Counted from the stretch's first letter, positions 9,175-31,392 are shown. The stretch is 64,000 bases of DNA from an uncultured Alphaproteobacteria bacterium (GCA_944390455.1 CALXPU010000007.1:356-64355), one strand, 5' to 3'. A program made the numbers and translations. Notes: generated by a model from the letters alone, not told the origin.

Positions 9175-9176
9175 TC

Positions 9177-9362
9177 ATGGTTGCTAAAAAGACTGTTAAA
9201 GTTACTCAAGTTAAAAGTTCCATCGGCCACGGCAAAGAGCAAATTGCTACTTTGAAAGGTTTGGGCTTAAACAAAGTTGGCAGAACTTCTGTTTTGGAAG
9301 ATACTCCAGCTGTTAGAGGTATGATTAATAAGGTAGCTCACCTCATTAAAGTTGAAGAATAA
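9177..9362 (+). CDS. rpmD: 50S ribosomal protein L30
   Basis: 61 aa, …[55 protein letters not shown] is L30. Confidence 0.93.
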
Positions 9363-9470
9363 TTGCAGTCGGGCGTTGAGCGGTTTTTACCGCTCTGCCC
9401 CAAGCTGTTGAGGTTAGCCCGTAGCAAGTGTTTTTGATTTTATTTTGAGTTTTTGTAAAAGGTGAATAAA

Positions 9471-10733: not shown

Positions 10734-10748
10734 ATCTTATCTATATTA

Positions 10749-11951: not shown

Positions 11952-12061
11952 TTATTAGTTATTCCGGTTAAGTTCTTCTTGATAGCGTCGGATAATTTTA
12001 TTCATTAGCGGTTTGCAAAAACGGCAAGAGTTCATTTTATTTTCCTGAAGTTGTTTAGTTA

Positions 12062-12089
12062 TAAACTTTATCTTAAAATATAAAGTTTA
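12062..12089. promoter_or_regulatory. perfect 10-bp inverted repeat TAAACTTTAT-N8-ATAAAGTTTA in divergent promoter region (candidate operator)
   Basis: Directly read from sequence. Located between divergent starts at 11951 (-) and 12148 (+). Confidence 0.4.
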
Positions 12090-12147
12090 ATTTTTTTATA
12101 ATATAAGTGCATGTAGAAAATTTGGTTGTAGAGGAACTGTTGCGACG

Positions 12148-12780
12148 ATGGGGATAAAAGAATTGCTCAAAAAATATAATGAACGATTTATGCAGAATAA
12201 TTCGCATGGGGACGAACTGTGTGAAGAGATTTTTGAATTTACTGATCGCTCTTCTTTATTGATTTTGTCTGCACCGCATTCTACGCGCAGTTTTGTGGCT
12301 AAAAGAGAGAAAATGGCGGATTTGTATACCGGAGCTCTTGTTCAATATCTGGGCGAAAAGCATCATGTATCAACGTTAATTCGCACAAAATATACTCCTT
12401 TTAAAGCGTTGATTTCTGATTGTGTTGTGCAAAAAAATCTCGGAGAACATTATTTTTTAGATATTCATGGATTTAATCAGGAAGTCGGTTATGATATTTG
12501 TCTTGGTACGGGAGAGTTTTCTGAAGAGGCGTATCCATATTTGCAGGGTATAGTGAATATTGCACATCAATTTGGGCTGAAAGCGGTTATTAATCATCCA
12601 AATTATATGGGAAAAATAGGGTTAACCGGAAGGTATCAAAAATTTTATAATAAGCCTAACGTGATTCAAGTGGAATTGAAGCAACATTTAAGAGATTTTT
12701 ATGGACATTTTGATGTGGTTAAAAATATTACTCTTCCTTTTTTTGAACAAATTATTCGTCAGTATCAAGCGAATGAGTAG
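12148..12780 (+). CDS. predicted metal-dependent amidohydrolase, N-formylglutamate amidohydrolase (FGase)-like
   Basis: 210 aa. Motifs LILSAPHSTR and LDIHGF resemble the FGase/HutG-like family. Weak assignment. Confidence 0.35.
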   Translation: MGIKELLKKYNERFMQNNSHGDELCEEIFEFTDRSSLLILSAPHSTRSFVAKREKMADLYTGALVQYLGEKHHVSTLIRTKYTPFKALISDCVVQKNLGEHYFLDIHGFNQEVGYDICLGTGEFSEEAYPYLQGIVNIAHQFGLKAVINHPNYMGKIGLTGRYQKFYNKPNVIQVELKQHLRDFYGHFDVVKNITLPFFEQIIRQYQANE

Positions 12781-12867
12781 TTTTGTTATTTTGTTGAGTT
12801 GCGATAAAATGATTGATAAATTTGAGAGATGATTTATATTTAAAGTGTTCAAATTTAGGAGGCATCA

Positions 12868-13338
12868 ATGTCATATGTTGAAGGTACATTATCTCAAGGG
12901 GAAGAAATTAAAGGGAAAGTTCGGCTGCACTGGATAAACTATCTGTTTACTTGGTTTTTATGTCTTCTGGCTTTTTTATTAGTTTTGCTTTGGTTGTTTG
13001 ATGCTACATGGCGCCAAAGTATAGAAGCTCAGATTTTTGTTGGTGCGGTGGTATTATGGGCTGTTTATGACTATTTACGTTTGGCTACAATTGAAATGGT
13101 GCTTACAAATAAACGTGTGATTTTTAAGAAGGGAATTATTAGTGTTAAAACACAGGAACTGAAAACTAGCAAGATTGAGTCTGTTGAAATTAAGCAATCA
13201 ATATTGGGTAGGCTCTTAGGGTATGGAATGTTGATGTTTTCTGGAACCGGAACGGCTAAAGTTCGGTTTACGGCAGTGGATAATCCATGGGAAGTTAAAA
13301 GTCAGGTAGAGACGATTATTGAAAGTTATGCTAACTAA
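12868..13338 (+). CDS. bacterial PH-domain (YdbS/YdbT-like, bPH_2) membrane protein
   Basis: Two N-terminal TM helices then TNKRVIFKKGIIS…ESVEIKQSILGRLLGYG…, typical of membrane-anchored bacterial PH domains. SD aggagg upstream. Confidence 0.5.
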   Translation: MSYVEGTLSQGEEIKGKVRLHWINYLFTWFLCLLAFLLVLLWLFDATWRQSIEAQIFVGAVVLWAVYDYLRLATIEMVLTNKRVIFKKGIISVKTQELKTSKIESVEIKQSILGRLLGYGMLMFSGTGTAKVRFTAVDNPWEVKSQVETIIESYAN

Positions 13339-13541: not shown

Positions 13542-14933
13542 ATGCGTAAATATCTTGAATTCTTCCGTGTGGAAGCAAAATCTTTATTAAAAAATTTCCA
13601 GAAAAATGAACAAAGTGCGGTTGCCAGATGTGCAGAAGTTTTTGGCGATAAAAAAGATTTATCGTTGATGAATATGCAACATGTGGTGGCTAAAGAATAT
13701 GGTTTTGACAATTGGAACGCTTTGAATAAAGCTGAAAATTGGCAACTTGCCGAAGTGCTGATAAAATCTAAAAATCAAACATTAGCTATGCCTCTTTATG
13801 CCGATGAAAAAAAGGGGAATGTTTATTCTCGGGCTGAACGCTATGAAGTTGGTTTGATTAAAAGCCGTGCGGGAGTGGATTTAGAAAATTTTATTCAAAC
13901 ATCACCGAATGGTTATGCGTCTCCTTTTTTGCAATTAGAAAGATTTGATTTGTCTGATTATGATTTATCAAAAATGAATCCGTTGTTTGTGTCTTTTGAT
14001 GAGTATACACGTTGGCCGGAAGATGTTGCTAAATTGCCTCAAAACTTTAATCCGCAAAAATTTATGGAGCAAAGAAAAAATCCAGGGCTTGGTATTCGTC
14101 GTTTGCATCGGCAAAATCTTGTTGGTCAGGGGCGTGCGATGGCTGTTATTGATGGTTTTCTATTGAGTGATCATTTGGAATATCATGAAAATTTGAAAGG
14201 TTATGAGAGAATTTGTTCAGATGATTTGGGACATGGTGCTAATGGTGGTGCGTTGGTGTCTGCCCTTGTGGGGAAAACTTGTGGAGTAGCCCCGTTTGCC
14301 GATGTTTATTATTTTTCGGCGCAACAGATGGAAAATAATCATCGGACGCAGCGATATTATGCGCAAGCGTTGCAGAAAATTTGTGATATTCATGAGAAAC
14401 TTCTGCAAAATGGGAAAAACGGTATTGATACGGTTTGCATTTTATGGGGAATTACAAGCCCTGTTTTTCAGCAGGATGACGGTGTATCTGAGATGAAAGA
14501 CGCTCTGGAACGAGCTCATAGCTTAAATATTTGGGTTAATAGCGGTGACTTGAAGTTTGAGGGTAAACTGTGGTCTGAAGGACGGATACATTGTACTTAT
14601 AGCGGAGATTTAGATAATCCGATGGATTATGAAGTGATGCCTAACGCTCCCAAAATTCCTTTAGAAGTTAGTGAATTTTGGAAAAACAGATTATGTTTTC
14701 CGGCTGGTGGTCGCACAGTGACGAGAAATGACAGACTAGATGCTTATGCATTTTCGGCTCCGGGGTTTTATCTCAAGCCTTATGAATGCGGATTGTTTGT
14801 ATTGGCAAGGTGTATCAAAAATGATTTGACACCTGAGGAGTTTTGGAAGTTTTCTCTTGAAACAGGAGATTATCGTGCCGGTATGGGGGTGATTGTTAAT
14901 CCGCAAAAATTGATTGATGCTTTAAGAAAATAA
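13542..14933 (+). CDS. hypothetical protein with subtilase-like Asp/His/Ser motif order (possible S8-like peptidase); alternative start 13410
   Basis: AMAVIDGF…LGHGANGGALVSAL…GITSPVF resemble the D/H/S blocks of S8 peptidases but are degenerate. ATG 13542 has an AAGGA SD, while 13410 has none. Confidence 0.4.
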   Translation: MRKYLEFFRVEAKSLLKNFQKNEQSAVARCAEVFGDKKDLSLMNMQHVVAKEYGFDNWNALNKAENWQLAEVLIKSKNQTLAMPLYADEKKGNVYSRAERYEVGLIKSRAGVDLENFIQTSPNGYASPFLQLERFDLSDYDLSKMNPLFVSFDEYTRWPEDVAKLPQNFNPQKFMEQRKNPGLGIRRLHRQNLVGQGRAMAVIDGFLLSDHLEYHENLKGYERICSDDLGHGANGGALVSALVGKTCGVAPFADVYYFSAQQMENNHRTQRYYAQALQKICDIHEKLLQNGKNGIDTVCILWGITSPVFQQDDGVSEMKDALERAHSLNIWVNSGDLKFEGKLWSEGRIHCTYSGDLDNPMDYEVMPNAPKIPLEVSEFWKNRLCFPAGGRTVTRNDRLDAYAFSAPGFYLKPYECGLFVLARCIKNDLTPEEFWKFSLETGDYRAGMGVIVNPQKLIDALRK

Positions 14934-14991
14934 TGTTATACAAGGGAGAGTGAGTGATTGCTCTCCTTTTTTATGATGTAGAGGAATTTGA

Positions 14992-15471
14992 ATGAGTAAG
15001 AATATTGATATTTTAGTAGCAAATGAAGAAGATGCAGAAGATATTGCCCGCCTTTCTTATCAAGTGGGAAAAATGCATGATGATGCGTTGCCGGATTATT
15101 TTAAACCGACACCCGAAGAAGAACATTTGCGGATTATTCAGAATATGCTGAAAGATGAAAATGCCGTTATTTTTAAAGCAGTAGAGGGTGGTAAAATTTG
15201 CGGGTTTATGTGTATGCTTATTCAAGAAAAATCACGCAATGGTTATGTACATTCCAAAGTTGCTTATATTTATAACTTTGGGGTTGATGAAGCTATGCGA
15301 AGCCGTGGAATTGGCGGAAGGATGCTACAAACAGCCGAGAGCTTTTTACAAACGAAAGGTGTTGAAGCTGTGGAGCTCAGTGTCTTTATGTTTAATCAAC
15401 GAGCTTTGACGTTTTATGAAAAAAACGGATATCGTACATTGGATGTTAATTTGCAGAAAATTTTGAAGTAA
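14992..15471 (+). CDS. GNAT family N-acetyltransferase
   Basis: 159 aa. …YIYNFGVDEAMRSRGIGGRMLQ… is acetyl-CoA binding motif A (R/Q-x-x-G-x-G/A). Confidence 0.75.
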   Translation: MSKNIDILVANEEDAEDIARLSYQVGKMHDDALPDYFKPTPEEEHLRIIQNMLKDENAVIFKAVEGGKICGFMCMLIQEKSRNGYVHSKVAYIYNFGVDEAMRSRGIGGRMLQTAESFLQTKGVEAVELSVFMFNQRALTFYEKNGYRTLDVNLQKILK

Positions 15472-15653: not shown

Positions 15654-17603
15654 ATGCAAGAACAGAGAGTTTTTCTTGAAAAGTATAATTTTGTAAAATT
15701 TGAATTAGAAAGAATTAAGTCTTTATGGGGATTGAAAAAGGAGCATGCAGAGCAGAAAAGTAGTTATGATATTTCAATTGGGGAAATTATTAAGGAGATT
15801 TTTTCAGAACTTAAATTGTATGCGTTTAAGCCTTGTAAAAAATTGTTATTAGCAATGGCTATATGTGGGGTGTTGAGTGGGATAACCCCTTATTTAAGAA
15901 TGCTTTATATGGGGGAACTTCCCGAACTTTTAAACGGAACAACCAAGGCTATTATTATTTTTTCTTGCTTTATGGCAATGAGTGAACTTAATGGTTATTT
16001 ATTATCAATTTTTTCTACGCGTTCCAGATTTATTCAAGATGAAATGATGGATTTATATGATAATTCTGTGCGGGCGAAAAATTATGTTGAAATTTTGCAT
16101 AAACCCAGAGCCTTATTTAATGTTAACGGTGTGGGGGGATTGCTTGCTATGGCTGAATCTATATTTAGGTATAAACGCTTTATTTTGGATAGATTGTTCA
16201 TTTCTTATAAAGAGTTTATTTCTTTAGTTGTTTGTACGGCTAGTTTGTTTGCTATTGTTCCGCAGTTGGCGTTGTTTATTTTGTTGTTGCAATTTATTTC
16301 AATGGAGTTTGCTCTTTATAATAATAAGTTTTTTAGAAGAGTTGATGAGCGGTTTCGTTTGTTTTCGGCGAAAGTTTATCGCGAAAACGGACAAATCAGC
16401 AGTCTTGCTTCATTGGTGCAAAGTGCTAATAAGGTGGAAAAAGAAAGTAAACGTGTTTATGCCAGGCTTATGCGTAGTTCCGCTAAATTGCGGTTAAAAA
16501 TCTTTAACCGTTTAATGGGGGAAGAAAGTATTCGCCTAATTTTGGATGCGCTTTTAGCTATTGCGGTTTGCTATGTGGCTATTCGGGATATTATTCAAAC
16601 CGGTGATATCGGACGATTGGCTTTAATTTCCGGTGCGGCGATGCAGATGCAAGGACGTTGGCAGAGTGTATTTCGTTTTTATTTTAATGTGGACGAGTAT
16701 AAAAATTTGGTTGCGGATACCAGAAAACGTATGCAACTTCCTAAAGTTTTAGAAAGAGTTACCGGTAATCATCATTTAAGTGTGGCGGATAATTTTATTC
16801 GCTTGGAAAATGTTAGTTTTGCGTATCCGGCTCTTAAACGTATGGAAGAAATAGGCTATCTAACGGAGATTAAATACGGTGCTACGGTTTTAGAGAATGT
16901 ATCGCTTGATATTCGTGCGGGAGGCGTTACTGTTGTGGCCGGAACTTCAGGGCAGGGTAAATCGACATTAATGAGGCTTATTCGACATGATTATGATGTG
17001 CAACAAGGTAAAGTCTTTATCGGAAGTCAGAATGTTTGTGATTTGCCAGATGAGGAAATTAACAAGCATATTGCTTTTATTGGGCAGAGTGTGCAGTTTT
17101 TTGATGCGTCTATTCGTCGTAATCTTACTTATTTGAGTGATGTAACGGATGAAAAACGTTTGCATGAGGTTTTGGATGCAGTTGGATTAACCGAAGATAT
17201 TGCTAAGTTTGAAGAGGGGCTTGACTATAAAATCGGAATTAATGGGAATAAACTTTCCGGTGGTCAACGACAGAGATTGGCTTTGGCGCGAACTTTATTA
17301 ACCAATCGTCCGATTGTGATTATGGATGAGCCAACAACCGGATTGGATCAGGTTTTGAGCTTTCAGGTGATGAAATCTCTTAAAGAATTGGCAAAGCACA
17401 AAACGGTATTGCTGGTTACACATAATCCAACTGAAATTGCTTTGGCGGATAGGGTGCTGATTATCAAAGATAAACATGTTGTTGCGGATGGGGAACCGTT
17501 GCACCTGGTGACACATTCGGAATTTTTGAAATCGGCAATGACAAAGCAAGATGTGTTGAGTAAACGAGAATTATTTATTGCGCATTGTTTGAAGGTTGCG
17601 TAA
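15654..17603 (+). CDS. ABC exporter, fused permease/ATPase, atypical (paralog of 20689..22956)
   Basis: C-terminal NBD with Walker A GTSGQGKST, signature LSGGQRQRLALAR, Walker B IVIMDEPTTGLD and H-loop VTHNP. N-terminal about 5-6 TM helices plus 70-aa soluble leader. GGAGG SD 8 nt before ATG 15654, whereas the track ORF starts at TTG 15639. Confidence 0.8.
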   Translation: MQEQRVFLEKYNFVKFELERIKSLWGLKKEHAEQKSSYDISIGEIIKEIFSELKLYAFKPCKKLLLAMAICGVLSGITPYLRMLYMGELPELLNGTTKAIIIFSCFMAMSELNGYLLSIFSTRSRFIQDEMMDLYDNSVRAKNYVEILHKPRALFNVNGVGGLLAMAESIFRYKRFILDRLFISYKEFISLVVCTASLFAIVPQLALFILLLQFISMEFALYNNKFFRRVDERFRLFSAKVYRENGQISSLASLVQSANKVEKESKRVYARLMRSSAKLRLKIFNRLMGEESIRLILDALLAIAVCYVAIRDIIQTGDIGRLALISGAAMQMQGRWQSVFRFYFNVDEYKNLVADTRKRMQLPKVLERVTGNHHLSVADNFIRLENVSFAYPALKRMEEIGYLTEIKYGATVLENVSLDIRAGGVTVVAGTSGQGKSTLMRLIRHDYDVQQGKVFIGSQNVCDLPDEEINKHIAFIGQSVQFFDASIRRNLTYLSDVTDEKRLHEVLDAVGLTEDIAKFEEGLDYKIGINGNKLSGGQRQRLALARTLLTNRPIVIMDEPTTGLDQVLSFQVMKSLKELAKHKTVLLVTHNPTEIALADRVLIIKDKHVVADGEPLHLVTHSEFLKSAMTKQDVLSKRELFIAHCLKVA

Positions 17604-17641
17604 TATTCTCTAAATTATTTTTTATTTAGAGGGGAAATGAA

Positions 17642-18325
17642 ATGTCCGGAATTGTTGAAAAAGCATTGTTATTTGCTAAAGAATGTCATGCAGGAGATAA
17701 TTCCGGACATGATTTTGAGCATATTTTGCGGGTGATGGCTAATGCCGAAAAGATTTTGATGGAAGAGCCTCTGGCCGATGCTGAAGCTGTACGTGTGGCG
17801 GTGGCTTTGCATGATGTTGATGATTACAAATTAGGTTCTGACGGTGCTCGGGCTAAAAGTTTTTTATCTGAAATCGGCGCTCAAGAAGATTTTGCTAGAA
17901 AAGTATTGGATATCGTTAGTTCTATCGGTTTTTCTAAATCGGGTAGTCATCCAAATTTTCAGATGATTGAGCAGGCGATTGTATCTGATGCGGATAAATT
18001 GGATGCGGTTGGAGCGATTGGAGTTTGTCGTACAGCTATGTATTCGGCGGCGACAAAACGTCCGCTCTTTAATGAGCAAATTTTTCCGGATGAAAATTTA
18101 ACACCAGAACAATATCAAAACAAAAATCGGGCGACAAACCACGCTATTAACCATTTTTTTGATAAATTGCTGAAACTTAAAGGTGCGATGCAGACAAAAG
18201 TCGGTAAAATGGAGGCGGAAAAACGCCATTTGTTTATGATTGCGTTTTTAAGAGAATTTTTTGATGAAGTGCGAGCTGATGAGTGGCAAGAATATTTGGA
18301 TAAATTCTTAAAACAAATTGCTTAG
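17642..18325 (+). CDS. HD-domain phosphohydrolase
   Basis: H…HD motif: FEHILRV … VALHDVDDYK … DADKLDAVG. Confidence 0.7.
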   Translation: MSGIVEKALLFAKECHAGDNSGHDFEHILRVMANAEKILMEEPLADAEAVRVAVALHDVDDYKLGSDGARAKSFLSEIGAQEDFARKVLDIVSSIGFSKSGSHPNFQMIEQAIVSDADKLDAVGAIGVCRTAMYSAATKRPLFNEQIFPDENLTPEQYQNKNRATNHAINHFFDKLLKLKGAMQTKVGKMEAEKRHLFMIAFLREFFDEVRADEWQEYLDKFLKQIA

Positions 18326-18352
18326 TTTTCTTTCTTTTTTCATGGAATAGTA

Positions 18353-18381
18353 TTGACCTTAGACAAAAAATATGGTATTAT
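18353..18381 (+). promoter_or_regulatory. sigma70-like promoter TTGACC-N17-TATTAT
   Basis: Seen in sequence about 150 nt upstream of the 18534 ORF. Confidence 0.45.
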
Positions 18382-18533
18382 CTTCTTGTTTACCGTATTA
18401 TTGTTTCTATAGATTTGAACGTTCTTTAGAGTATTTGCTTTAGGGAGTGATTTGGGTTTTGGACTTTAATTGGTGAGCCGTTAAGGGGAAAATCTTCTTA
18501 ATGTATTTTGTTTTTTTTTAAATTTTTTTAACC

Positions 18534-20144
18534 ATGAGACAAAATGTTTTTGTGCGGATTTTTGCCGCAATCATGAGAGTGTGTTTTCCGCTTATGGCGG
18601 TTAAGTACTTCACCAAGAAAACCAACAAACACGCTGAGTTGTTTTTGCCGAGCGAGGCAAAACAGCTTAAAGCAATTGAAAAGCTGGATTTAGACACCGA
18701 CCAGATACGAGCGCGTGTATGGTCTCTTCAGGTCAAAGTTGCGCGATTGCAACAGAGACACAATGACCTGATTCAGGAGATAAAGACTGAACAGGAGTTT
18801 TCCGCTCTTGTAGAGCGTGCTCATGTAGATATTGTTGCGCAAGCAATGAAGTTCTACACCCCGACACAAGAAATGGCTCTGCGTCTTCTGTCTCAATTCG
18901 GTCTGGATGCGGTTGAGCTGATTAATAAAGCTCCGGCGGCGTTTGATGGGCTTAAGGCCAGCGACATCTTGAGTGTTAAGCCAAATGAGGTTTGCGCCCC
19001 TGATAGTCCTCGTTGGGCTTTTGCAGAGGCTCTGGTCTCTAAGCGTTCGTCTTGGGCGCTTAAGTTTTTGGATGAACTTCGCAAGATGCCTCCGCAAAGA
19101 CTTGGCGAGCTGGGGAAAGCTAAATTTAACTTCTTTTTCAAATTCGCGTATGAGGCGAAGGAGAACGTGGCATTTTTGATGCCATATATGGCGGTTTTCT
19201 TCCCCGAGCTTTATGCTCAGGTGAGAGCGAATTTTTTCTTATATAAGGAATTCGCGCCATATATCACAAAAATGTTGCCTGCGAAGTTGAGATACTTGGA
19301 TAAAGGGAGATATAGTTTTCTCTCCAAGGGGTTTTCTCAGATTTCGGTGGAAGGGCAGCTTGATGAAGTCGGAGATGCCTATGCTTGGCTTAGTATTGCC
19401 TATTATAGGATGAATGAGCCGGCGGTTTATGAGCTTATCATTTCCAAGATGAGCGATATTAAGCCGATGGTGTCTGAGTCAATTTACAGTCAGCTTCTTG
19501 ATAGACTGATTGCATTGGCGAATTGTCCGGCGGATGTTTCTCGTCTGCTAAGTCTGGCTGATGACAAACGGAAGCAGGTTCTCTACCATAAAATGGTGGA
19601 GAAAAAATATGCAGTACTTTTGGCTGCTCAATATCCGTTCTCTTCATGGGAGGATAAAGAGCTAATCAAAAGTGCTTTACGTATTGTCATTACCGACAAT
19701 CATTTTCCTTTGGCAAAAATGCACGAACTTCCTGAGGATTTGCAGGAATTTGCAACTTACCAAATGGAAGTATCTGCTCAGATTGCTGCTTTAAAAAGTG
19801 ATATCTTCAAAAATGTAGGGTATCATTTGCTTCCTGAGGTAGAAATCTATCTGGTGCTGATGGATCCGCGGTACTCCTTGAAGTATCAGAAACTCTATGT
19901 TGATGAATTTAAATTGTCTGAAAAGGCATTTAATGCTTTGATACATAGAGAAACTGTTAAACTTCAAGATCAGGTGGTTTTTCCTGATGTTTTGGTTGGC
20001 AAATATGCAGCCAAATGGGGACTGACGGATGAGCAGTATCAAGCATTACTGCAGACACCGATGAAGAAATATACCCTTCAGTGGAAGGAGTATATTAAGA
20101 AACCGGAAGTTTCACATGTTTATCATAACGAAACAGAAGGGTAA
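18534..20144 (+). CDS. hypothetical alpha-helical protein (536 aa), compositionally foreign
   Basis: Long ORF with markedly higher GC and GCG/CTG-rich codon usage than neighbours. No recognisable motifs. Followed by a strong terminator. Confidence 0.55.
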   Translation: MRQNVFVRIFAAIMRVCFPLMAVKYFTKKTNKHAELFLPSEAKQLKAIEKLDLDTDQIRARVWSLQVKVARLQQRHNDLIQEIKTEQEFSALVERAHVDIVAQAMKFYTPTQEMALRLLSQFGLDAVELINKAPAAFDGLKASDILSVKPNEVCAPDSPRWAFAEALVSKRSSWALKFLDELRKMPPQRLGELGKAKFNFFFKFAYEAKENVAFLMPYMAVFFPELYAQVRANFFLYKEFAPYITKMLPAKLRYLDKGRYSFLSKGFSQISVEGQLDEVGDAYAWLSIAYYRMNEPAVYELIISKMSDIKPMVSESIYSQLLDRLIALANCPADVSRLLSLADDKRKQVLYHKMVEKKYAVLLAAQYPFSSWEDKELIKSALRIVITDNHFPLAKMHELPEDLQEFATYQMEVSAQIAALKSDIFKNVGYHLLPEVEIYLVLMDPRYSLKYQKLYVDEFKLSEKAFNALIHRETVKLQDQVVFPDVLVGKYAAKWGLTDEQYQALLQTPMKKYTLQWKEYIKKPEVSHVYHNETEG

Positions 20145-20160
20145 ACTTTAAAGAACAATT

Positions 20161-20196
20161 ATATGGGGTGACGTGAGTCATCCCATATTTTTTTGT
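20161..20196 (+). terminator. rho-independent terminator
   Basis: atatggggtgac-gtga-gtcatcccatat 12-bp stem followed by TTTTTTT. Confidence 0.75.
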
Positions 20197-20270
20197 CTTA
20201 TTATAAATTAGTTGTTGTATTTTTCTATTTTTTATATATCTTTTATTTTATATACAAATTTCTTTAGAAC

Positions 20271-20516
20271 TTGGAGCAAGCTATGCTAGATAGAGTTGAT
20301 GCTTTAGATGTAAAACAGTTTCGGGGGCGAAGCGTTTTTTATTACCAGTCTATTCGGCCGTCTATATACAAAGATAATACGTTTAAACGTGGGTATGGTA
20401 ATGATATGTGTTTTGTGGAAGAAAGAACTCAACAAAATGGATATAAAAATGCACGGGCCAGAGTTATTGATGGTGGTGTAGGACGGTTGACCGCATTGCC
20501 ACCGATTTATTGGTAA
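20271..20516 (+). CDS. small hypothetical protein (81 aa)
   Basis: ORF only. Moderate GC. No motif support. Confidence 0.25.
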   Translation: MEQAMLDRVDALDVKQFRGRSVFYYQSIRPSIYKDNTFKRGYGNDMCFVEERTQQNGYKNARARVIDGGVGRLTALPPIYW

Positions 20517-20688
20517 GGTGTTTGTTGTTGCCTTTTGATGGATGAGTATAGCTTTTTGTGACTTGCGTATTGTTGCTTTGAAATTTTTGTTTTATTGACC
20601 TTTTGAGGTCTTTTTTTGTGCTTGTTTTATGTGGTTTTTTGTGGTAAAATCTCTCTAATAGATGCCTAAATGTTAGGGAGATTTGAAA

Positions 20689-22956
20689 ATGGCTCAAGAG
20701 AAAACGAAAGAAAAAAAATCAAATAAAATTCCTAATTTTGCGGAATATGAACGTGAGCGCCTTAAAAATTTGGCAAGTGAAGCGAGGAAAGCTGCTCAAG
20801 AACTCAAATCTGCCGGACAGAAAATAGGAAAAGAAGTTTTGGATGCTCCGGAAAAAAAAGTTAAAGAGAAGGGAACACTTAAAACATCTTGGGAGGTTTT
20901 TAAGGAAGCCTGGGAAAAAACTGGTAAAGATTTTAGAAAATCAGTTGGCTATAAAATGGGAGAATCTGTTTTTCAGGGATTGTTACCATATTGTCAGAAT
21001 TTGTTATTTGGTTCACTTTCGGGGATTGTTGCCGGTACAAGCGGGGCAACAGCTAAATTCTTTGGAGCGGCAGCTCTTAATGTTGCACGACAAAGATTGG
21101 GGGATTTCTGCCGATTTAAATCTAAAATGGCAACGATTGTTTTAAATGATACGCATGCTAATGCCGCTTCTAGTTCTATCTATAAGGATATTCTTCATAA
21201 ACCGCGTCCGTATTTTAAAGATAATGCTCCAGCATCTTTGGGAGGTTTGACATCAGAGATTGTTTCGGCTAAAAATACTTTGCTAAATAAATCAGTAGAA
21301 TGTATGTCTAAAGTGATTGTATTTGGTATTAGTTCTGCTAGTTTAGTGGCTGTTGATCCGATGCTTGCTGCAGGGGTTTTGGGCGTGACTGTGGTTACGG
21401 CAGAATTTGGCGGATATATGAATAAAGTTTATCGTAAACTCAATAGTAAAATGCGTTCTTTTTCTCATAAAATCTCTAAAGAAAATAGTGATTCAATTAA
21501 AAATACACCACTTGTCCAAGATACTAATCGGGTTGAAGTGGAAACAAAGCAAATGGAAAATCGCTTAAATAAAGCTTCTAAAGTTACACAGAAGATTACA
21601 TATGCTAAGAGTAAAGCTTATCTGAAAATGAGTATGGCTATTAATATCGGTATGGAAGGATTAATTATGGCGGCAGCTTTTGCTGATGTGGTTAAAACCG
21701 GAGATATCGGCCGGTTTGCTCTGATTAGCACGGCTTCGTGGCAGATGATGAGCTCTGGGAATATGCTTTCGGAATTTTGGAATGAAATGCAGGCGGGAAC
21801 GCATAGACTTATTGATGCTTCTAAAAAATTGATTACACCAAAAGAACTTGAACGTGTTACAGGTAAAGAAAAATTAACCGAAAGGGATACTAAAATTAGT
21901 GTGCGAAAAGTTAATTTTGCATATCCGCAAATTAAAGATGTTACCGATATGAGCTTGGTTGAGGCCATGGATCGAGAAGGCGAGATTAAAAGAGGCGAAA
22001 ATGTGCTTAAAGATTTAAGTGTTGAGTTTGATAAAGGTTGTTTAACGGCTGTAGTTGGTACTTCAGGTAATGGCAAATCCACGTTGATGAGCCTTATTCG
22101 TCATGATTATGATGCTCAGTCGGGGCAAATATTTATCGGAAATAAGGAAATTCGTGAATTATCTGATGATGAACTTAATGCGCATATTGCGTTTGTGGAT
22201 CAAAATGTACACTTTTTTGATGAAAGCGTGGGGTATAATCTTAAATATTTTAAGCCTGAAGCTACAGATGAAGAACTTATGCAGGCATGCGAAAAAGCAG
22301 GATTTAATCGTGATATTCAGAAGTTTAATGATGGTCTTTCTCATAAAATCGGGCAAGATGGAGCTAAACTTTCTGGTGGACAAAGACAACGTTTGGCGCT
22401 GGCTCGTGTCTTTTTAACCGATAAACCGATAGTGATCATGGATGAACCGACAACAGGTCTTGATCCAAATCTTAGTCTTAAAATTATGAAGTCTCTTAAA
22501 GATATGGCTCAAGATAAAACGGTGATTATGGTGACACATAATCCAACTGAAGTTGCGCTTTCTGATAGAGTGGTTGTGATTGAAAAAGGTGAAATTGCTG
22601 CGGACGGAAAGCCGATGGATTTGATTAAAACCAGTGAGTTTTTGCGTAATGTCTTAACTAAAGATGATATTAAAAACAAAAATAAGCTTTATCAAACCAG
22701 TATTAATGGGGTTAATCCGATGCAGGAGGCTGCAACTGTGCTTAATGAAGAAGCTAACGGTAAAGTTTTGAGCGATATTGAAAGGGCGGAGAAAAGAAAA
22801 CTTTTGGAAGCGCATAAGAGAGCTTATGTTGGGGTTCGCAAGAAAACGCTTGAAAATCAACGTCGCAAGGAAGGCAAACCTTTACCAGAAAAGAAACAGA
22901 GACAACCTCTTAATCCGCCATCAGCTGTATTAAATCGTGGTGGGGCGGAGATTTAA
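20689..22956 (+). CDS. ABC exporter, fused permease/ATPase with long K/E-rich N- and C-terminal tails (paralog of 15654..17603)
   Basis: NBD GTSGNGKST…LSGGQRQRLALARV…IVIMDEPTTGLD…VTHNP. SD agggag 8 nt before ATG 20689. Extended -10 TGgTAAAAT at about 20643-20651. Confidence 0.8.
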   Translation: MAQEKTKEKKSNKIPNFAEYERERLKNLASEARKAAQELKSAGQKIGKEVLDAPEKKVKEKGTLKTSWEVFKEAWEKTGKDFRKSVGYKMGESVFQGLLPYCQNLLFGSLSGIVAGTSGATAKFFGAAALNVARQRLGDFCRFKSKMATIVLNDTHANAASSSIYKDILHKPRPYFKDNAPASLGGLTSEIVSAKNTLLNKSVECMSKVIVFGISSASLVAVDPMLAAGVLGVTVVTAEFGGYMNKVYRKLNSKMRSFSHKISKENSDSIKNTPLVQDTNRVEVETKQMENRLNKASKVTQKITYAKSKAYLKMSMAINIGMEGLIMAAAFADVVKTGDIGRFALISTASWQMMSSGNMLSEFWNEMQAGTHRLIDASKKLITPKELERVTGKEKLTERDTKISVRKVNFAYPQIKDVTDMSLVEAMDREGEIKRGENVLKDLSVEFDKGCLTAVVGTSGNGKSTLMSLIRHDYDAQSGQIFIGNKEIRELSDDELNAHIAFVDQNVHFFDESVGYNLKYFKPEATDEELMQACEKAGFNRDIQKFNDGLSHKIGQDGAKLSGGQRQRLALARVFLTDKPIVIMDEPTTGLDPNLSLKIMKSLKDMAQDKTVIMVTHNPTEVALSDRVVVIEKGEIAADGKPMDLIKTSEFLRNVLTKDDIKNKNKLYQTSINGVNPMQEAATVLNEEANGKVLSDIERAEKRKLLEAHKRAYVGVRKKTLENQRRKEGKPLPEKKQRQPLNPPSAVLNRGGAEI

Positions 22957-22988: not shown

Positions 22989-24734
22989 TTATGATTGGAT
23001 AAAGCCGTCTGACTGCAAATTGAATAAATGGTAAAATTTACCGGATTTGTTTTTGAGCAATTCTTGTGGTGCTCCACTTTCTACGATTTTGCCGTGTTCC
23101 AGCACTACTATTCTATCCATGTTTCTTAAAGTTGATAAGCGGTGGGCAATCGCTATAACGGTTTTGTTTTTCATGATGTTTTGTAGAGCCTTTTGGATGG
23201 CTGTTTCTGATTCGCTATCTAAAGCGGAAGTAGCTTCATCTAAAATTAAAATCGGAGTGTCTTTTAGGATAGCTGAGGCTATGGCTATTCTTTGTCTTTC
23301 GCCGCCGGATACCTTAACTCCTCTTTCTCCGACTACGCTTTGATACCCTTTAGGCATTTTTAAGATTGTGTCGTGAATTTGAGCTAGTTTGGCTGCTTTG
23401 TAAACATCTTCATCGGAGGCTTTAGGGTTTGAAAAGCGGATGTTATTTATTATAGAACGATTGAATAAGGTCGGCTCTTGCGGGATAAGGGCTATATGAC
23501 GGTGTAGCGAACTTTGTGTTATCTTGGCAATGTTTTGCTCAGAAATCTGAATTTCTCCTCCTTTTATGTCATAGGCGCGGAGGATTAAATTGATTAGAGT
23601 TGATTTGCCTGAGCCAGATAAACCAACGATACCGACTTTTTCGTTTGCTTTTATTTCTAGATTGAAATCTTCAAATAATGGGGCTTTGTTTTCATAGGCA
23701 AAGCTCATATTTTTTATGGAAATATTGGGCTTGCTTATTTTTAGTTGCTTGGCGTTGGGGGCGTCATTGACTTCTATCGGTTTATAAATGATATTTATAG
23801 CATCTTCTAAACCGCCTAGGTTTTGTTGATAGCGTATGATAAAATCTCCTATTCTATCTATCGGAGATAAAAGTAAATGAATGTATGTCAAGGCAATCAG
23901 AACTTGGCTGATATTGAGATTTTTTGCATGCCAGAAATAAACTAAAATCAATAGAGATATGACGCGTAAGACCATCAGCGATAAGATATTAAAGCTGTTG
24001 GATATGCCTGTTTCTTGTCCTTTTTTGAGGTAACTTCGGACGACTTTTTTCAGTGTTTTGCCTAAGTAAGCCTTTTCATGCAATACAGCGCCGCAGTTTT
24101 TTACTAGGCGGGCATTGGCGATACTGTCTACGATAATTCCGGCAGCTTCCGACTCTAATTGAGCGTTTTCTCTGGAGATTGGTTTTAGGTTTTTGCAGTG
24201 GTAGTAGTTAAAGAAACTTGTTATTACGCAAAAAAAGGTAATGGATGTGGCTAAGCCTTTGTCAACGCTGAATAATATCGGTAAGGCAACTGCATAGGGG
24301 ATAATGACTGCTTCCAATACGCCTTTAAAACTCCAGCAGAGATTTATGGTTTGAAGGACAAGTTGAATAACTTTATTAGATATTTTTCCGGACATTTCTT
24401 CGGTAAAATATGAAGTGGAGTGTTTATGTGTGTACTTGAATGCGTCTTTGTAAATATTGCGTTTTAGAAAAATATCCATGCGAAATTCAAAAATGGTGCG
24501 TAGGCCGTCGCAAATATTTGAGCCAAAATGTAGGGCAGCGTATATGGCAACATAGGTTATAGAAGTGCTGGTTATAATTTGCGTTGGATTTTCAACAATG
24601 TAACCGAACAACGATGCAATGTAGTAATTGTCTAGGTAAATAAATACACGACTGAGCCCAAATAAACCAAAGGTGGCGATGGTGTACAATTTAATTCGTC
24701 TTAAGTATTTGAAAATAAATTTTATTGCGGTCAT
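22989..24734 (-). CDS. ABC transporter ATP-binding/permease protein, MsbA-like exporter (tandem paralog 1 of 3)
   Basis: 6-TM TMD plus NBD (GLSGSGKST, VSGGERQRIAIA, ILILDEATSALD, IAHRL). Confidence 0.9.
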   Translation of the reverse strand: MTAIKFIFKYLRRIKLYTIATFGLFGLSRVFIYLDNYYIASLFGYIVENPTQIITSTSITYVAIYAALHFGSNICDGLRTIFEFRMDIFLKRNIYKDAFKYTHKHSTSYFTEEMSGKISNKVIQLVLQTINLCWSFKGVLEAVIIPYAVALPILFSVDKGLATSITFFCVITSFFNYYHCKNLKPISRENAQLESEAAGIIVDSIANARLVKNCGAVLHEKAYLGKTLKKVVRSYLKKGQETGISNSFNILSLMVLRVISLLILVYFWHAKNLNISQVLIALTYIHLLLSPIDRIGDFIIRYQQNLGGLEDAINIIYKPIEVNDAPNAKQLKISKPNISIKNMSFAYENKAPLFEDFNLEIKANEKVGIVGLSGSGKSTLINLILRAYDIKGGEIQISEQNIAKITQSSLHRHIALIPQEPTLFNRSIINNIRFSNPKASDEDVYKAAKLAQIHDTILKMPKGYQSVVGERGVKVSGGERQRIAIASAILKDTPILILDEATSALDSESETAIQKALQNIMKNKTVIAIAHRLSTLRNMDRIVVLEHGKIVESGAPQELLKNKSGKFYHLFNLQSDGFIQS

Positions 24735-26488
24735 GCTTCTTCTCCATAAGAAAGATAGCCATTGTTTTGGAGCTGATAAAGTTTGTAGAATGTGCCGGAT
24801 TTGTTTTTGAGTAGTTCATCTATGGAACCTTCTTCAATTATCTTGCCATTTTCTAAGACGATTATTCTATCCATGCTTCTTAAGGTTGATAAACGGTGAG
24901 CAATGGCGATAACGGTTTTATCTTTGATGATATTTTGTAATGCCTTTTCTATCATTATTTCCGCTTCACTGTCTAAGGCCGATGTTGCTTCATCCAAAAT
25001 TAAAATCGGAGCATCTTTTAGGATAGCAGAGGCTATGGCTATTCTTTGTCTTTCGCCGCCGGATACCTTAACGCCTCTTTCTCCGACTACGCTTTGATAC
25101 CCTTTAGGCATTTTTAAAATCGTGTCGTGAATTTGAGCTAGTTTGGCTGCTTTGTAAACATCTTCATCAGATGCTTTGGGGTTTGAAAAGCGGATGTTAT
25201 TCATTATGGAGCGGTTAAATAAACTGGGTTCTTGTGGAATTAAGGCTATGTGATGGCGCAACGAACTTTGTGTCACTTCTGTAATATTTTGCTCGGAAAT
25301 CTTAATTTCTCCCCCTTTTATATCATAGGCGCGAAGAATTAAATTGATTAGAGTGGATTTGCCGGAGCCTGATAAACCAACGATACCGACTTTCTCGTTT
25401 GCTTTTATTTCTAGATTGAAATCTTCAAACAATGGGGCTTTGTTTTCATAAGCAAAGCTCATATTTTTGATAGAGATATTGGGGGTGTTTATTTTTAATT
25501 GTTTAGCGTTGGGAGCATCATTTATTTCTATCGGTTTATAGATGACATTTATAGCATCCTCCAAAGAGCCTGTGTCTTGTAAATAGCGAAGAAATGCAGC
25601 TCCTATTTGATTTATGGGGGATAATGCTAACTGAATGTAAGTTAAGGCAATCAGAACTTGGCTGATGTTGAGATTTTTTGTATGCCAGAAGTAAACTAAA
25701 ATCAGTAAAGATATGACACGCAAGACCATTAGGGATGTAGTATTGAAACTGATTGATATTCCTCTTTCGTGTCCTTGTTTTAAATGGCTTTTGATGACTT
25801 TTTTAAGAGCTTTACCTAAGTAAGCCTTTTCATGCAATATGGCACCGCAATTTTTAACTAGGCGAGCATTGGCAATGCTATCCACGATAATTCCGGTGGC
25901 TTCTGACTCTAATTTTGCATTTTCTTTGGATATCGGTTTTAGAATCTTGCTGTGCCAACAGTTGAGGAGACTTGTTATTATGCAAAAAAAGATGATGGAT
26001 GTAGCTAAACCTTTGTCAATACTAAACAATATCGGTAGGGCGACAGCATAAGGAATAATGACGATTTCAAGTATTATTTTAAAACACCCACAAAAATATA
26101 TTGAACTATCTACAAGTTGAATAATTTTATCAGATACTTTTCCGGACATTTCTTCCGTAAAATAAGAAGAGGAGTGTTTATGCGTATGTTTGAATGCATC
26201 TTTATAAATATTGCGTTTTAAGAAAATATCCATGCGAAGTTCTGTAAAGGCACGAATACTATCGATTACGTTTGAACTAAAGTGCAAGAGAGTATATATG
26301 ATAATATAGGTTAAAGAAGTGTTGGTTATTATTTGTGTCGGATTTTCGGCTATATAACCGAATAATGAGGCTATATAATAATTGTCCAGATAAATGAGAG
26401 TGCGTTCAAGGCTATATAAACCAAGTGTTGCGATGGTGTAGAGCTTGATTTGCTTAAAATATTTGAAAATAAATTTTATTGCAGTCAT
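24731..26488 (-). CDS. ABC transporter ATP-binding/permease protein, MsbA-like exporter (tandem paralog 2; mosaic)
   Basis: Same architecture. ATGA overlap with paralog 1. Middle section near-identical to paralog 1, last about 85 codons identical to paralog 3. Confidence 0.9.
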   Translation of the reverse strand: MTAIKFIFKYFKQIKLYTIATLGLYSLERTLIYLDNYYIASLFGYIAENPTQIITNTSLTYIIIYTLLHFSSNVIDSIRAFTELRMDIFLKRNIYKDAFKHTHKHSSSYFTEEMSGKVSDKIIQLVDSSIYFCGCFKIILEIVIIPYAVALPILFSIDKGLATSIIFFCIITSLLNCWHSKILKPISKENAKLESEATGIIVDSIANARLVKNCGAILHEKAYLGKALKKVIKSHLKQGHERGISISFNTTSLMVLRVISLLILVYFWHTKNLNISQVLIALTYIQLALSPINQIGAAFLRYLQDTGSLEDAINVIYKPIEINDAPNAKQLKINTPNISIKNMSFAYENKAPLFEDFNLEIKANEKVGIVGLSGSGKSTLINLILRAYDIKGGEIKISEQNITEVTQSSLRHHIALIPQEPSLFNRSIMNNIRFSNPKASDEDVYKAAKLAQIHDTILKMPKGYQSVVGERGVKVSGGERQRIAIASAILKDAPILILDEATSALDSEAEIMIEKALQNIIKDKTVIAIAHRLSTLRSMDRIIVLENGKIIEEGSIDELLKNKSGTFYKLYQLQNNGYLSYGEEA

Positions 26489-28245
26489 GCTTCTTCTCCA
26501 TAAGAAAGATAGCCATTATTTTGGAGCTGATAAAGTTTATAGAATGTACCGGATTTGTTTTTGAGTAGTTCATCAATGGGACCTTCTTCAATTATCTTGC
26601 CATTTTCTAAGACAATTATTCTATCCATGCTTCTTAATGTAGAAAGTCTATGAGCGATGGCAATCACGGTTTTATCTTTGATGATATTTTGTAATGCCTT
26701 TTCTATCATTATTTCCGCTTCACTGTCTAAGGCCGATGTTGCTTCATCCAAAATTAAAATCGGAGCATTTTGTAAAATAGCGCGGGCAATAGCAATGCGT
26801 TGTCTTTCTCCACCGGAAAGCATTGTCCCTCTTTCACCGACGACGCTATTGTATCCGTGTGGTAAATTCATAATGGTTTTATCAATTTGTGCTAATTGAG
26901 CGGCTTGGCGGATTTGCTCTTCGCTCGCTTGTGAGTTGGTTATACGCAAATTTTCCAAGATACTACGATTAAATAAGGCGGTATCTTGTGAGATAACGGC
27001 AATGTTTTTGTGGTGGGAGCGGAAAGTTAAGTCTTTGATATTTGTTTTGTTTAGCAATATTTCTCCGCTGTCTACATCATAAGCGCGAAGTAATAAGTTA
27101 ATCAAGGTGGATTTTCCTGAGCCGGAATGTCCGACTACTCCAATCTTTTCTCCGGCTTTGATATGTAGATTTAGGTTTTCAAATATCGGTTTGCCTTTGA
27201 TGTATGCAAAGTTTACGTTTTTGAATATTATTTCAGCTTTTGTTGGGCGTATGTTGATGGCGTTTTCTTTTTCTTTGATGTCAATGGGTTGGTTTAGGGT
27301 TGAGAAATTAGCACGAATTCCTCCCAGCTGATCAGATATAAATTGGCAGTAGTTGTTTATGCCCATGGTGGCTAAAACTAAGTTGACCAAGGTGGTGTAA
27401 ACGTAAAACAGATTATCCAGAGCGATATTGTCTTTTTGTGCAAAATATAAGATTAAAAAGATTCCGGAGGTTAAGAATACGGTATCTATTGCATGAAAGG
27501 TAAAACGCGAAACAATTTGATAACGTCCTTGTTCGGCTATGCGTAAAAGGGCTTGTTTTAAGCTTTTGTAAAAATAAAGTTGTTCGCTGAAAAATGATCC
27601 GCTGTATTTGACTAAATTGGCATTGGCAATGCTGTCTACTAAAATGCCTTTGGCTATGTTTTCATAATTTACACGATTTCGGCCTAAATCAAAAAAGTGA
27701 CGATTTACTTTATATACGGCGAAAAAATATGGAATGTTTATTGCAAATAATAGGGCGCTTAGTGATGGACTGAATGTTGCTATAATGGAATAAGATACGA
27801 TTAAAATTCCCATTGGACGGATGAGTAAAAAACAGGTATCCGAGAATAATTGTGTTAAACTCTGGCATAATCCTGTTAGTGCCGATGATATACGACCACT
27901 CATTTCATCATCAAAGTAACGAACGGAATGAGCATGAATTTTGGTGAAAATGTCTGTTACTAAATGACTTAAAAATGTTTGGGAAAAGGCGTCTTTTATA
28001 TATGTGGCGTAGTAGCCGTTTACGAGGGCGCGGATAAGGTAATATCCGACTAATATCAATAAAATTGTGAAACATTGATTGAGCGCTTCGGTTGAGTTTT
28101 TTATTTCAAAGCAACCAACAAGGCGGCTGATAAGCCATGTTTCTAATGGTAAAATGATGCAGGTCAAAATGAATGTAATGCAAAAAAGAATAAACAGTTT
28201 TTTACATTTTTTAAGATTTTTTAATATAAGCGTTCTAATATCCAT
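26485..28245 (-). CDS. ABC transporter ATP-binding/permease protein, MsbA-like exporter (tandem paralog 3)
   Basis: TMD plus NBD (GHSGSGKST, LSGGERQRIAIARA, ILILDEATSALD). ATGA overlap with paralog 2. Confidence 0.9.
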   Translation of the reverse strand: MDIRTLILKNLKKCKKLFILFCITFILTCIILPLETWLISRLVGCFEIKNSTEALNQCFTILLILVGYYLIRALVNGYYATYIKDAFSQTFLSHLVTDIFTKIHAHSVRYFDDEMSGRISSALTGLCQSLTQLFSDTCFLLIRPMGILIVSYSIIATFSPSLSALLFAINIPYFFAVYKVNRHFFDLGRNRVNYENIAKGILVDSIANANLVKYSGSFFSEQLYFYKSLKQALLRIAEQGRYQIVSRFTFHAIDTVFLTSGIFLILYFAQKDNIALDNLFYVYTTLVNLVLATMGINNYCQFISDQLGGIRANFSTLNQPIDIKEKENAINIRPTKAEIIFKNVNFAYIKGKPIFENLNLHIKAGEKIGVVGHSGSGKSTLINLLLRAYDVDSGEILLNKTNIKDLTFRSHHKNIAVISQDTALFNRSILENLRITNSQASEEQIRQAAQLAQIDKTIMNLPHGYNSVVGERGTMLSGGERQRIAIARAILQNAPILILDEATSALDSEAEIMIEKALQNIIKDKTVIAIAHRLSTLRSMDRIIVLENGKIIEEGPIDELLKNKSGTFYKLYQLQNNGYLSYGEEA

Positions 28246-29730: not shown

Positions 29731-31392
<1,662 letters not shown>

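Follow-up and report, generated by a model that had tools for sequence, protein, structure and literature searches.

Two paralogous, probable type IV ABC exporter half-transporters of a lineage-restricted subfamily in an uncultured Alphaproteobacteria bacterium

What kind of ATP-binding cassette (ABC) protein is encoded by two similar genes on a genome fragment of an uncultured Alphaproteobacteria bacterium? The fragment (GCA_944390455.1 CALXPU010000007.1:356-64355) comprises 64,000 nucleotides, and its whole length is referred to here as the window. An initial annotation had placed two plus-strand open reading frames (ORFs) in it and described them as paralogous, atypical ABC exporter fusions. 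Both ORFs were confirmed at those positions: paralogue A (15654..17603, +, 649 aa) and paralogue B (20689..22956, +, 755 aa). A GGAGGA ribosome-binding site precedes the ATG of A by 8 nt, and AGGGAG lies 5' of the start of B. Public assemblies contain the exact protein sequences of both, with identical starts, on as many as 12 contigs. The analyses suggest that A and B are probably type IV (ABCB/MsbA-like) ABC exporter half-transporters in architecture and general mechanism, belonging to an atypical subfamily as had been proposed. A was assigned as a short-type member from its ORF, translation, ABC_tran domain, identity to B and position in the tree; B was assigned as a long-type member from its ORF, the same domain, its AlphaFold2 model and Foldseek matches. 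In each protein, a cytosolic extension at the N-terminus leads into an elbow helix and a complete transmembrane domain (TMD) of six helices, and a C-terminal nucleotide-binding domain (NBD) with all its catalytic motifs intact follows; members of the long clade have in addition a basic tail of about 100 aa and four helices, which is conserved and specific to the family.

The claimed paralogy was borne out by BLASTP, which aligned A and B at 37% identity across 653 aa (E = 5e-146). By region of the family alignment (A1, 40 sequences), the NBDs are 53-55% identical, the TMDs 29% and the N-termini 22%; the NBD value is lower than the "about 60%" given earlier. The two proteins align through the TMD without large gaps, and both carry the distinctive NBD motif GTSG[QN]GKSTLM.LIRHDYD to which attention had been drawn. 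The three MsbA-like proteins encoded next door are far less similar, as claimed: in direct comparison with A and B only the NBD was alignable, at 33-34% identity. The best explanation is that A and B are anciently diverged paralogues of a small subfamily restricted to a lineage of uncultured gut and rumen Alphaproteobacteria.

Both proteins have the C-terminal NBD with the full motif set of type IV exporters, and the Pfam ABC_tran domain (PF00005) was matched at 101 bits in A and 100.9 bits in B. The NBD of A (aa 382-628; 16797..17537, +), delimited from alignment A1 and by a gap against the MsbA-like NBDs, has intact Walker A, Q-loop, signature, Walker B, D-loop and H-loop motifs. The NBD of B (aa 403-654; 21895..22650, +) contains the canonical motifs GTSGNGKST, Q505, LSGGQRQR, IVIMDEPTTGLD and VTHNP. 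All the ATPase motifs are invariant in the 40-sequence alignment, namely the A-loop F410-x-Y412-P, GTSGxGKST, Q505, LSGGQRQR, IVIMDEPT, TGLD and VTHNP; the invariant residues of B include the Walker A K463, the Walker B pair D585-E586 and H617, besides Q505 and the A-loop Y412. The family also has an insertion of its own in the NBD beta-subdomain (about 20 aa in B; 21928..21996, +), which directly follows the A-loop (FAYP, then QIKDVTDMSLVEAMDREGEIKRG). This insertion, with 14-20 aa, is found in all the family members (about 14 aa in A, again after FAYP) and is absent from the MsbA-like neighbours; in B it is modelled with lowered confidence (predicted local distance difference test, pLDDT, 61-72).

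The TMD had been described as divergent and reduced. It is divergent, less hydrophobic and richer in Gly, Ala and Ser than those of the neighbours, but it is not reduced. The Pfam ABC_membrane model (PF00664) scored only 23 bits in B, below the cut-off of 28, and had no match in A; a precomputed match exists for several other family members. The shortfall in A and B reflects sequence divergence and not absence of the fold. The AlphaFold2 monomer model of B, computed on alignment A1 (mean pLDDT 81.3, predicted TM-score 0.69), shows long helices in pairs, as is typical of type IV exporters, at residues 63-97, 99-115, 120-169, 181-222, 224-271, 282-337 and 340-380. A Foldseek search of the PDB matched the model to complete type IV ABC exporters over about 600 columns, TMD included. 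The best match was McjD (target-normalised TM-score 0.88-0.89, rmsd 3.2 A), followed by MsbA, Rv1273c/72c, TM287/288, TmrAB, Atm1 and Sav1866 with TM-scores of 0.83-0.87. Because the model superposes on complete type IV exporters, a reduced TMD was ruled out; on the predicted model, B would have the elbow helix and six-helix TMD of this class (aa 63-380; 20875..21828, +), an assignment drawn from the predicted helices, the fold match, the MsbA alignment and hydropathy. In a sequence search of the PDB, residues 164-647 of B aligned with Vibrio cholerae MsbA (3b5x), and in tblastn the MsbA-like proteins encoded next door could be aligned to members of the family through the TMD, at 25-27% identity. 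Alignment A1 also revealed family motifs within the TMD (HKPRPYF, N..D...N.PLVQD and KTGDIGRFALI).

The hydrophobicity of B requires a closer consideration. Only two windows of 19 residues exceed a Kyte-Doolittle (KD) value of 1.2 in B, versus five or more in the MsbA-like neighbours; the mean KD of the transmembrane (TM) segments is 0.92 versus 1.13-1.33; and Gly, Ala and Ser make up 46 of the 129 residues in the six TM segments, versus 21-27 in the neighbours. Across the long clade, TM2 and TM6 have a mean KD of only 0.1-0.5. It might thus be asked whether B is a soluble or peripheral ABC ATPase, with a TMD that has degenerated to a helical scaffold and tails that are regulatory or bind nucleic acid; the few segments above KD 1.2, the weak TM2 and TM6, and a basic C-terminal tail (net charge +6 over residues 694-728) could be read in this way. 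However, the model has the full type IV TMD geometry at pLDDT 80-94, the hydrophobic belts of TM1, TM3, TM4 and TM5 are retained, TM6 is weakly hydrophobic in A as well, the TMD coupling motifs are conserved, and the difference from the MsbA-like neighbours, although real, is modest. A soluble ATPase is therefore very improbable and was rejected on its intact geometry and retained belts; the preferred reading of B is an integral membrane protein whose cavity is polar.

Do these proteins belong to a characterised ABC subfamily? The best full-length NCBIfam scores of A and B were 185-222 bits, versus cut-offs of 329-867, and no curated model was reached. For MsbA (TIGR02203 and PRK11176, cut-offs 602 and 867), A scored 185.5 and 155.5 bits and B 222.2 and 193.2 bits. 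The likeness to MsbA and Sav1866 is structural: the TMD-NBD order, six long TM helices with intracellular extensions, the elbow helix and the canonical NBD motifs are shared, the MsbA sequence alignment spans both TMD and NBD, and the fold TM-score is 0.82-0.84. The sequence identity is only about 20%, the ABC_membrane model stays below threshold, and, unlike MsbA and Sav1866, the family has more polar TM helices rich in Gly, Ala and Ser. It also has some 60 aa extra at the N-terminus and some 20 aa inserted in the NBD, to which B adds its C-terminal tail of roughly 100 aa.

The NBDs are among the closest to those of CydDC, and the DEPT..LD arrangement of Walker B and D-loop and the TH of the H-loop are similar to those in CydDC. 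However, the CydDC models (TIGR02857, TIGR02868, PRK11160 and PRK11174; cut-offs 435, 329, 630 and 684) were not reached, with best scores of 204.5 bits for PRK11160 and 193.9 bits for TIGR02868; these matches were essentially confined to the NBD, the TMDs of A and B had no match, and there is no cydAB nearby. Nor is the affiliation specific. Searched with the NBD only, A scored 194 bits for LssB, 186 for CydC and 180 for CydD; B scored 201 for CydC (PRK11160), 198 for LssB, 192 for CydD and 192 for MsbA_rel, so that the LssB and MsbA-related models lie within 10 bits and the scores are effectively tied, all of them far short of the model cut-offs. The TMD of B alone gave 30 bits to MsbA, and that of A gave nothing.

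Type I secretion ABC proteins and peptidase-containing ABC transporters (PCATs), such as HlyB, LssB, PrtD and the bacteriocin transporters, share with A and B the type IV fold, an N-terminal cytosolic accessory region before the TMD, and an LssB NBD score of 194-198 bits. Over the full length, LssB reached 192-199 bits versus a cut-off of 693, and the PCAT model TIGR01193 140-157 bits versus 524; all these scores lay far below the cut-offs of 510-725. No Peptidase_C39 match was found by Pfam in A, B or their isolated N-termini, and the extension is neither C39 nor C39-like. The initial annotation had noted that no periplasmic adaptor or outer-membrane partner is encoded nearby, and this holds for the window, where Pfam detected no HlyD or membrane fusion protein (MFP) domain and no OEP/TolC domain in any scanned ORF. 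Membership of type I secretion systems or of PCATs was thus excluded by the absence of C39 or C39-like domains (CLDs), of an MFP and of an outer-membrane protein (OMP). By these measures, which are sequence scores, the family appears to cluster with no ordinary characterised ABC subfamily.

Homologues of B were searched in 5.8 billion protein clusters. About 40 clusters were matched at E < 1e-120, followed by a cliff to 1e-69, below which the matches were NBD-only alignments, mostly to CydCD fusions. The few named family matches are labelled "MAG: Alphaproteobacteria bacterium" or "MAG: Acetobacter sp." (MAG, metagenome-assembled genome). The reference-genome loci recovered come from roe-deer rumen and mouse-gut Alphaproteobacteria MAGs and from the Alphaproteobacteria MAG SGB_5265. 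A profile search of genome contigs with the family alignment, which was dominated by the generic Walker-B pattern, supplied at least three useful loci (L005, L006 and L007). A midpoint-rooted, distance-based neighbour-joining tree, which is indicative only, placed the sequences in a short clade of 646-651 aa, including A, and a long clade of 712-784 aa, including B; one tailed sequence of 736 aa falls outside both. The subfamily is uncharacterised and has so far been seen only in uncultured gut and rumen Alphaproteobacteria; the literature on RF32 gut Alphaproteobacteria held nothing on these genes.

The initial annotation had credited B with two charged soluble tails, a K/E-rich one of about 110 aa at the N-terminus and a K/R-rich one of about 130 aa at the C-terminus. 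Both regions are indeed rich in charged residues (24 K/R and 16 D/E in residues 1-95; 22 K/R and 13 D/E in residues 655-755), but the lengths differ. The region before TM1 comprises about 95 aa; of these, residues 63-97 correspond to the elbow helix normally present, which leaves a true N-terminal extension of some 60 aa (aa 1-62; 20689..20874, +; from A1 conservation and the model). It has a predicted amphipathic helix at residues 17-41 (pLDDT 62-73), which carries a conserved motif, and a disordered K/E-rich linker at residues 42-60 (pLDDT < 50). The motif, F-x-x-[YF]-E-x-E-R, is kept in both clades, and its residue E21 is at least 90% conserved.

The C-terminal tail of B (aa 655-755; 22651..22953, +), defined from A1, the model and phmmer, is about 100 aa long. 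Its predicted helices (658-673, 677-689, 696-708 and 710-728; pLDDT 65-72) are followed by a basic, proline-containing end. The first 15 or so tail residues (LTK.DI.NK..L) are common to A and B, and A is without the long tail. The tail core, VLSD.ER..KR.LLEAHKRAYVGVRK...R.K.GKPLPEKK.RQPLNP, is present in every long-clade member down to 34% overall identity. An exhaustive phmmer search with the tail alone against 1.84 billion representatives returned eight matches, seven of which are family members or their fragments; the sole other match (P0306) was dismissed as a repeat artefact. Pfam searches with the isolated tails of A and B, at E values up to 10, gave nothing meaningful, and the term "fusion" is not supported by any Pfam domain in either tail. 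On these comparisons, the tails are conserved family-specific extensions, neither low-complexity noise nor fused known domains.

Such tails had been considered unusual for half-transporters. This applies to the length and conservation of the B tail, but not to its mere existence. Short post-NBD helices are known in the type IV exporters Atm1, TmrAB (the "zipper helices") and BmrA (PMC8694623, PMC11774805), where they touch the partner protomer, limit how far the NBDs separate, or are required for stability and activity (PMC8694623; PMC11774805). Like the tail of B, these are helical segments after a type IV exporter NBD. However, they have about 25 residues or fewer and are unrelated in sequence to the B tail, which at about 100 residues is some four times as long and comprises four predicted helices and a basic end rich in proline. 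The B tail is also kept across the whole clade, unlike the hydrophobic patch of yeast Atm1, which is species-specific (PMC8694623). By analogy, post-NBD helices of this kind may be the most economical model for the B tail, which would most economically act as an enlarged post-NBD zipper or clasp; it could also provide a docking surface for co-conserved cytosolic proteins.

How might A and B work? Each would function as a homodimer in the inner membrane, where ATP binding and hydrolysis at two equivalent consensus sites would drive switching between inward- and outward-facing states and export a substrate from the cytoplasm. Homodimers are favoured because both ATP sites are consensus, the genes are non-adjacent and uncoupled, and each type occurs alone in several loci. 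A and B could instead form a heterodimer with each other, the asymmetry coming from the B tail. The two genes lie within 7 kb on the same strand, they occur on the same contigs within the species-level cluster, and heterodimeric type IV exporters are common, with TM287/288 and TmrAB among the top fold matches of B. Yet they are neither adjacent nor translationally coupled: they are 3 kb apart, separated by two genes, a strong terminator-like hairpin and a small ORF, in contrast to the MsbA-like trio of the window, with its 4-bp gene overlaps. No degenerate site is present in either NBD, and the loci L001, L003, L086 and L087 have one type only, short or long, within 20 kb. A heterodimer is thus quite unlikely, and homodimers are preferred.

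Upstream of A lie two genes that recur with short-type members. The first encodes a cytosolic S8-like protein (13542..14933, +), recognised through distant homologues that bear PF00082 and signal peptides; its 507-aa ORF opens at 13410, and the real start is probably M45 (nt 13542). More than 80 homologue clusters were found, all unannotated. In the cytosolic clade (alignment A2), an N-terminal helical domain (FRVEAKSLLKNF...LSLMNMQHVIAKEYGF) stands in place of the signal peptide of the secreted relatives. The protein has no Pfam match of its own, and phmmer against the PDB gave nothing. As substitutions have removed the His and Ser of the catalytic triad and the Asp position varies, it is a pseudo-enzyme relative of the S8 subtilases and not a working member, and is called here a pseudo-subtilase. 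A terminator-like hairpin with a 12-bp stem and a T-run (14942..14969, +) follows it. The second gene, between the pseudo-subtilase and A, encodes a GNAT N-acetyltransferase (14992..15471, +; PF00583, 69 bits).

Between A and B, the HD hydrolase reported earlier was confirmed as an HD-domain phosphohydrolase (17642..18325, +; PF01966, 31.6 bits). It is YedJ/PRK10119-like, although below the cut-off (PRK10119 68 bits versus 286). The gene begins 38 nt downstream of A, with which it is probably co-transcribed. The next gene had been regarded as a compositionally foreign orphan. It encodes a lineage-restricted, all-alpha, solenoid-like protein of 536 aa (18534..20144, +). The homologues form 36 clusters, with identities from 100% down to 35%; sequence searches of Pfam, NCBIfam and the PDB matched nothing, and phmmer against the PDB gave nothing usable. 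Its AlphaFold2 model has a pLDDT of 89.6, and Foldseek matched only generic HEAT/ARM-like solenoids (TM-score at most 0.23). The GC content at third codon positions (GC3), 0.449, is indeed the maximum of the window (z = +2.9). However, the gene is syntenic in L001, L007 and L086, and the GC3 of its orthologue, again the highest in L086, is no outlier in L001. A recent horizontal origin was therefore rejected as unlikely, and the high GC3 looks like a gene-specific bias and not a sign of recent import. The gene evolves faster than its neighbours; on the contig of one relative it has 61% identity, versus 85% for B and 84% for the S8-like protein.

A second terminator-like hairpin, also with a 12-bp stem and a T-run (20161..20188, +), separates the all-alpha gene from B and from a small ORF of 77 aa (20283..20516, +) directly upstream of B. 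Because terminator-like hairpins follow the pseudo-subtilase and the all-alpha gene, the neighbouring genes do not form one operon. Orthologues of the small ORF occupy the same position in L001 (9471..9704; 35% identity, E = 2e-16) and L086 (7741..7962), and in these three divergent genomes the protein has 73-77 aa and ends in P-x-I-Y-W-stop. The small ORF had no Pfam or NCBIfam match, and no NCBIfam equivalog was reached by it, the GNAT or the other neighbours. The small protein might itself be exported, or act as a regulator or as an accessory subunit.

Does the neighbourhood recur? The block from 15.6 to 22.9 kb, which might have been found as a unit elsewhere, does not recur as such; it comprises two recurrent sub-modules, with the HD gene, juxtaposed in the window. 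Besides the window, L003/L004 and L087 have the first module, pseudo-subtilase, GNAT and short-type ABC gene; a pseudo-subtilase lies directly upstream of a short-type ABC gene in L006, and a pseudo-subtilase orthologue is present in L001. GNAT orthologues or paralogues stand beside family ABC genes in L001, L003/L004, L005 and L087. The second module has the order all-alpha protein, small protein, long-type ABC gene, convergent MsbA-like genes, glycosyltransferase and groESL, and is found in the window, L001 and L086. In L001 and L086 the all-alpha gene lies upstream of the long-type ABC gene. In L007 it follows an ABC-HD pair, and the ABC-HD-all-alpha order recurs there with an HD protein of 63% identity. 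In all, the pseudo-subtilase, GNAT and short-type ABC combination was counted in at least 4-5 loci, and the all-alpha, small ORF and long-type ABC combination in at least 3. The modules persist at only 40-65% protein identity, with different flanks. Long-type genes also occur in unrelated contexts (L002, L085 and L088).

Two observations were made beside the short-type module. In L005, a roe-deer rumen MAG, five GNAT copies flank the short-type ABC gene (7703..9135 and 11927..12880), an expansion which hints at a link between acetylation and export or at a detoxification role. A conserved trio of RimB-like protease, 7TM-transglutaminase and ATP-grasp protein (ATPgrasp_ST) occurs a few kb upstream of the module in several genomes (L003 760..3783, L004, and L005 3196..6222).

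These contexts bear on whether A and B are simply ordinary housekeeping lipid or multidrug exporters, extra MsbA-like paralogues whose tails are structural elaborations and whose neighbours are bystanders of synteny. The type IV fold and motifs are canonical, the window contains three further MsbA-like genes (one pair 81% identical), terminators separate the neighbours, and long-type members are also found in the unrelated contexts. Against this stand the lower hydrophobicity and higher Gly, Ala and Ser content of the TM helices relative to the MsbA-like neighbours, MsbA scores far below the cut-off of 602 bits, the strong conservation of the tail, and the persistence of both gene arrangements at 40-45% protein identity with differing outer flanks. 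Ordinary exporters are thus unlikely, and a distinct exporter subfamily is the preferred reading of A and B. The small and polar residues of the TM helices, together with the kinds of conserved neighbours, weakly suggest that a polar or amphipathic cargo, such as a peptide or small protein, or an acetylated metabolite that bears an amine, is more likely than bulk lipid.

A more specific proposal is a dedicated module for export of, or immunity to, a peptide or small protein, similar to those for ribosomally synthesised and post-translationally modified peptides (RiPPs), bacteriocins or type I secretion substrates. In such a module, the 77-aa protein or a different peptide would be exported; the pseudo-subtilase would bind peptides as a chaperone without catalysis, and the GNAT would serve in modification or immunity. 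The small ORF with its constant P-x-I-Y-W ending, directly upstream of the long-type ABC gene in three genomes, and the conserved pseudo-subtilase and GNAT beside short-type ABC genes would fit this proposal. Comparable pairs are familiar, since lantibiotic clusters combine the S8 protease LanP with the ABC protein LanT, and the microviridin and microcin C clusters combine a GNAT with an ABC protein. The best structural match points in the same direction: McjD, the exporter and self-immunity pump of the lasso peptide microcin J25, superposes on the B model over about 600 columns. McjD is a homodimeric type IV peptide exporter with no dedicated MFP or OMP gene in its cluster and no long tails. 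However, its identity to B is 19%, its score may reflect only the occluded conformation of the AlphaFold2 model, and no lasso-peptide maturation genes were found among the scanned neighbours of A and B. A C39 peptidase or CLD is likewise absent, the scanned ORFs of the window include no gene for an MFP or OMP, and no RiPP maturase is recognisable in the neighbourhood. The catalytic His and Ser of the subtilase homologue have been lost, no small ORF lies beside short-type ABC genes or at L002, L085 and L088, and the genes lie in separate transcription units. A dedicated peptide module is quite unlikely.

A bolder form of this idea would make the long-type exporter the core of an undescribed, lineage-specific and adaptor-free export machine. 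Its tail and the F..YE.ER helix would recruit cytosolic partners (the all-alpha protein, and in the short-type module the pseudo-subtilase and GNAT). These partners would choose a specific peptide or small protein, for example the 77-aa protein, modify it and pass it on for export, and delivery would rely on a dead-protease scaffold instead of a C39 domain. This is speculative and improbable.

Several points weigh against the assignment of A and B as type IV half-transporters with the proposed mechanism. The TM topology was judged from hydropathy and the model; the structure is a monomer prediction with a tail pLDDT of only 65-72; and the top rank of McjD may only mirror the conformational state of the model. 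In the genome survey the generic NBD pattern swamped the contig scan, and the locus counts are minima. The neighbouring genes are mostly separate transcription units, and since long-type members occur in unrelated contexts, the functional link to the neighbours may be loose. Any specific substrate class is, finally, unlikely to be the right one.

If the assignment is right, A and B represent an uncharacterised type IV exporter clade of poorly known gut and rumen Alphaproteobacteria, with three family-specific additions (the N-terminal motif, the NBD insertion and the 100-residue C-terminal tail) and recurrent partners that include a dead subtilase. The B tail would lend itself to testing how helices after the NBD tune the dimers of ABC exporters, and there may be a lineage-specific exported product relevant to life in the gut. 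The immediate value lies in annotation and hypothesis generation. The transporter kind is very well known, and the only mildly surprising features are the tail and the associations with pseudo-subtilase, GNAT and small ORF; the current understanding of ABC transporters is unchallenged, and no long-standing question is made testable.

Some other features of the window were also observed. The three MsbA-like genes form a tandem of MsbA/NdvA-like ABC genes (22989..28245, -) with 4-bp overlaps. The 81% identical pair consists of the first two, which suggests a recent duplication; L001 and L086 have two genes only. The C-terminal 70 or so residues of the middle gene appear near-identical to the end of the third, which suggests gene conversion between these two. 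A Glyco_trans_1_2 gene (28328..29344) and then groESL follow the MsbA-like genes in the window, L001 and L086. Downstream of groEL are a 1189-aa autotransporter with a BigA-like beta-sandwich and an autotransporter beta-domain (31337..34906, +), found in the same place in L001, and a MORN-repeat protein (35779..37320, +).

On the other side, the ribosomal-protein operon (about 1..9926) ends at L15 (9462..9926) and is followed by unrelated genes, with the same break in L001 and L086; secY and adk usually follow L15. Just past this operon is a low-GC island (10167..11951, -; 29-32% GC, z = -2 to -2.9) with a major facilitator superfamily (MFS) transporter and a P-loop kinase-like protein. L001 and L086 carry different genes there, and the island looks like the most foreign DNA in the window. 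Further downstream, three paralogous GtrII-like glucosyltransferase membrane proteins (538, 519 and 542 aa) are encoded at 47680..53520 (-), together with a family 2 glycosyltransferase (GT2) gene at 49299..50252; this cluster suggests a diversified system for surface-glycan modification.

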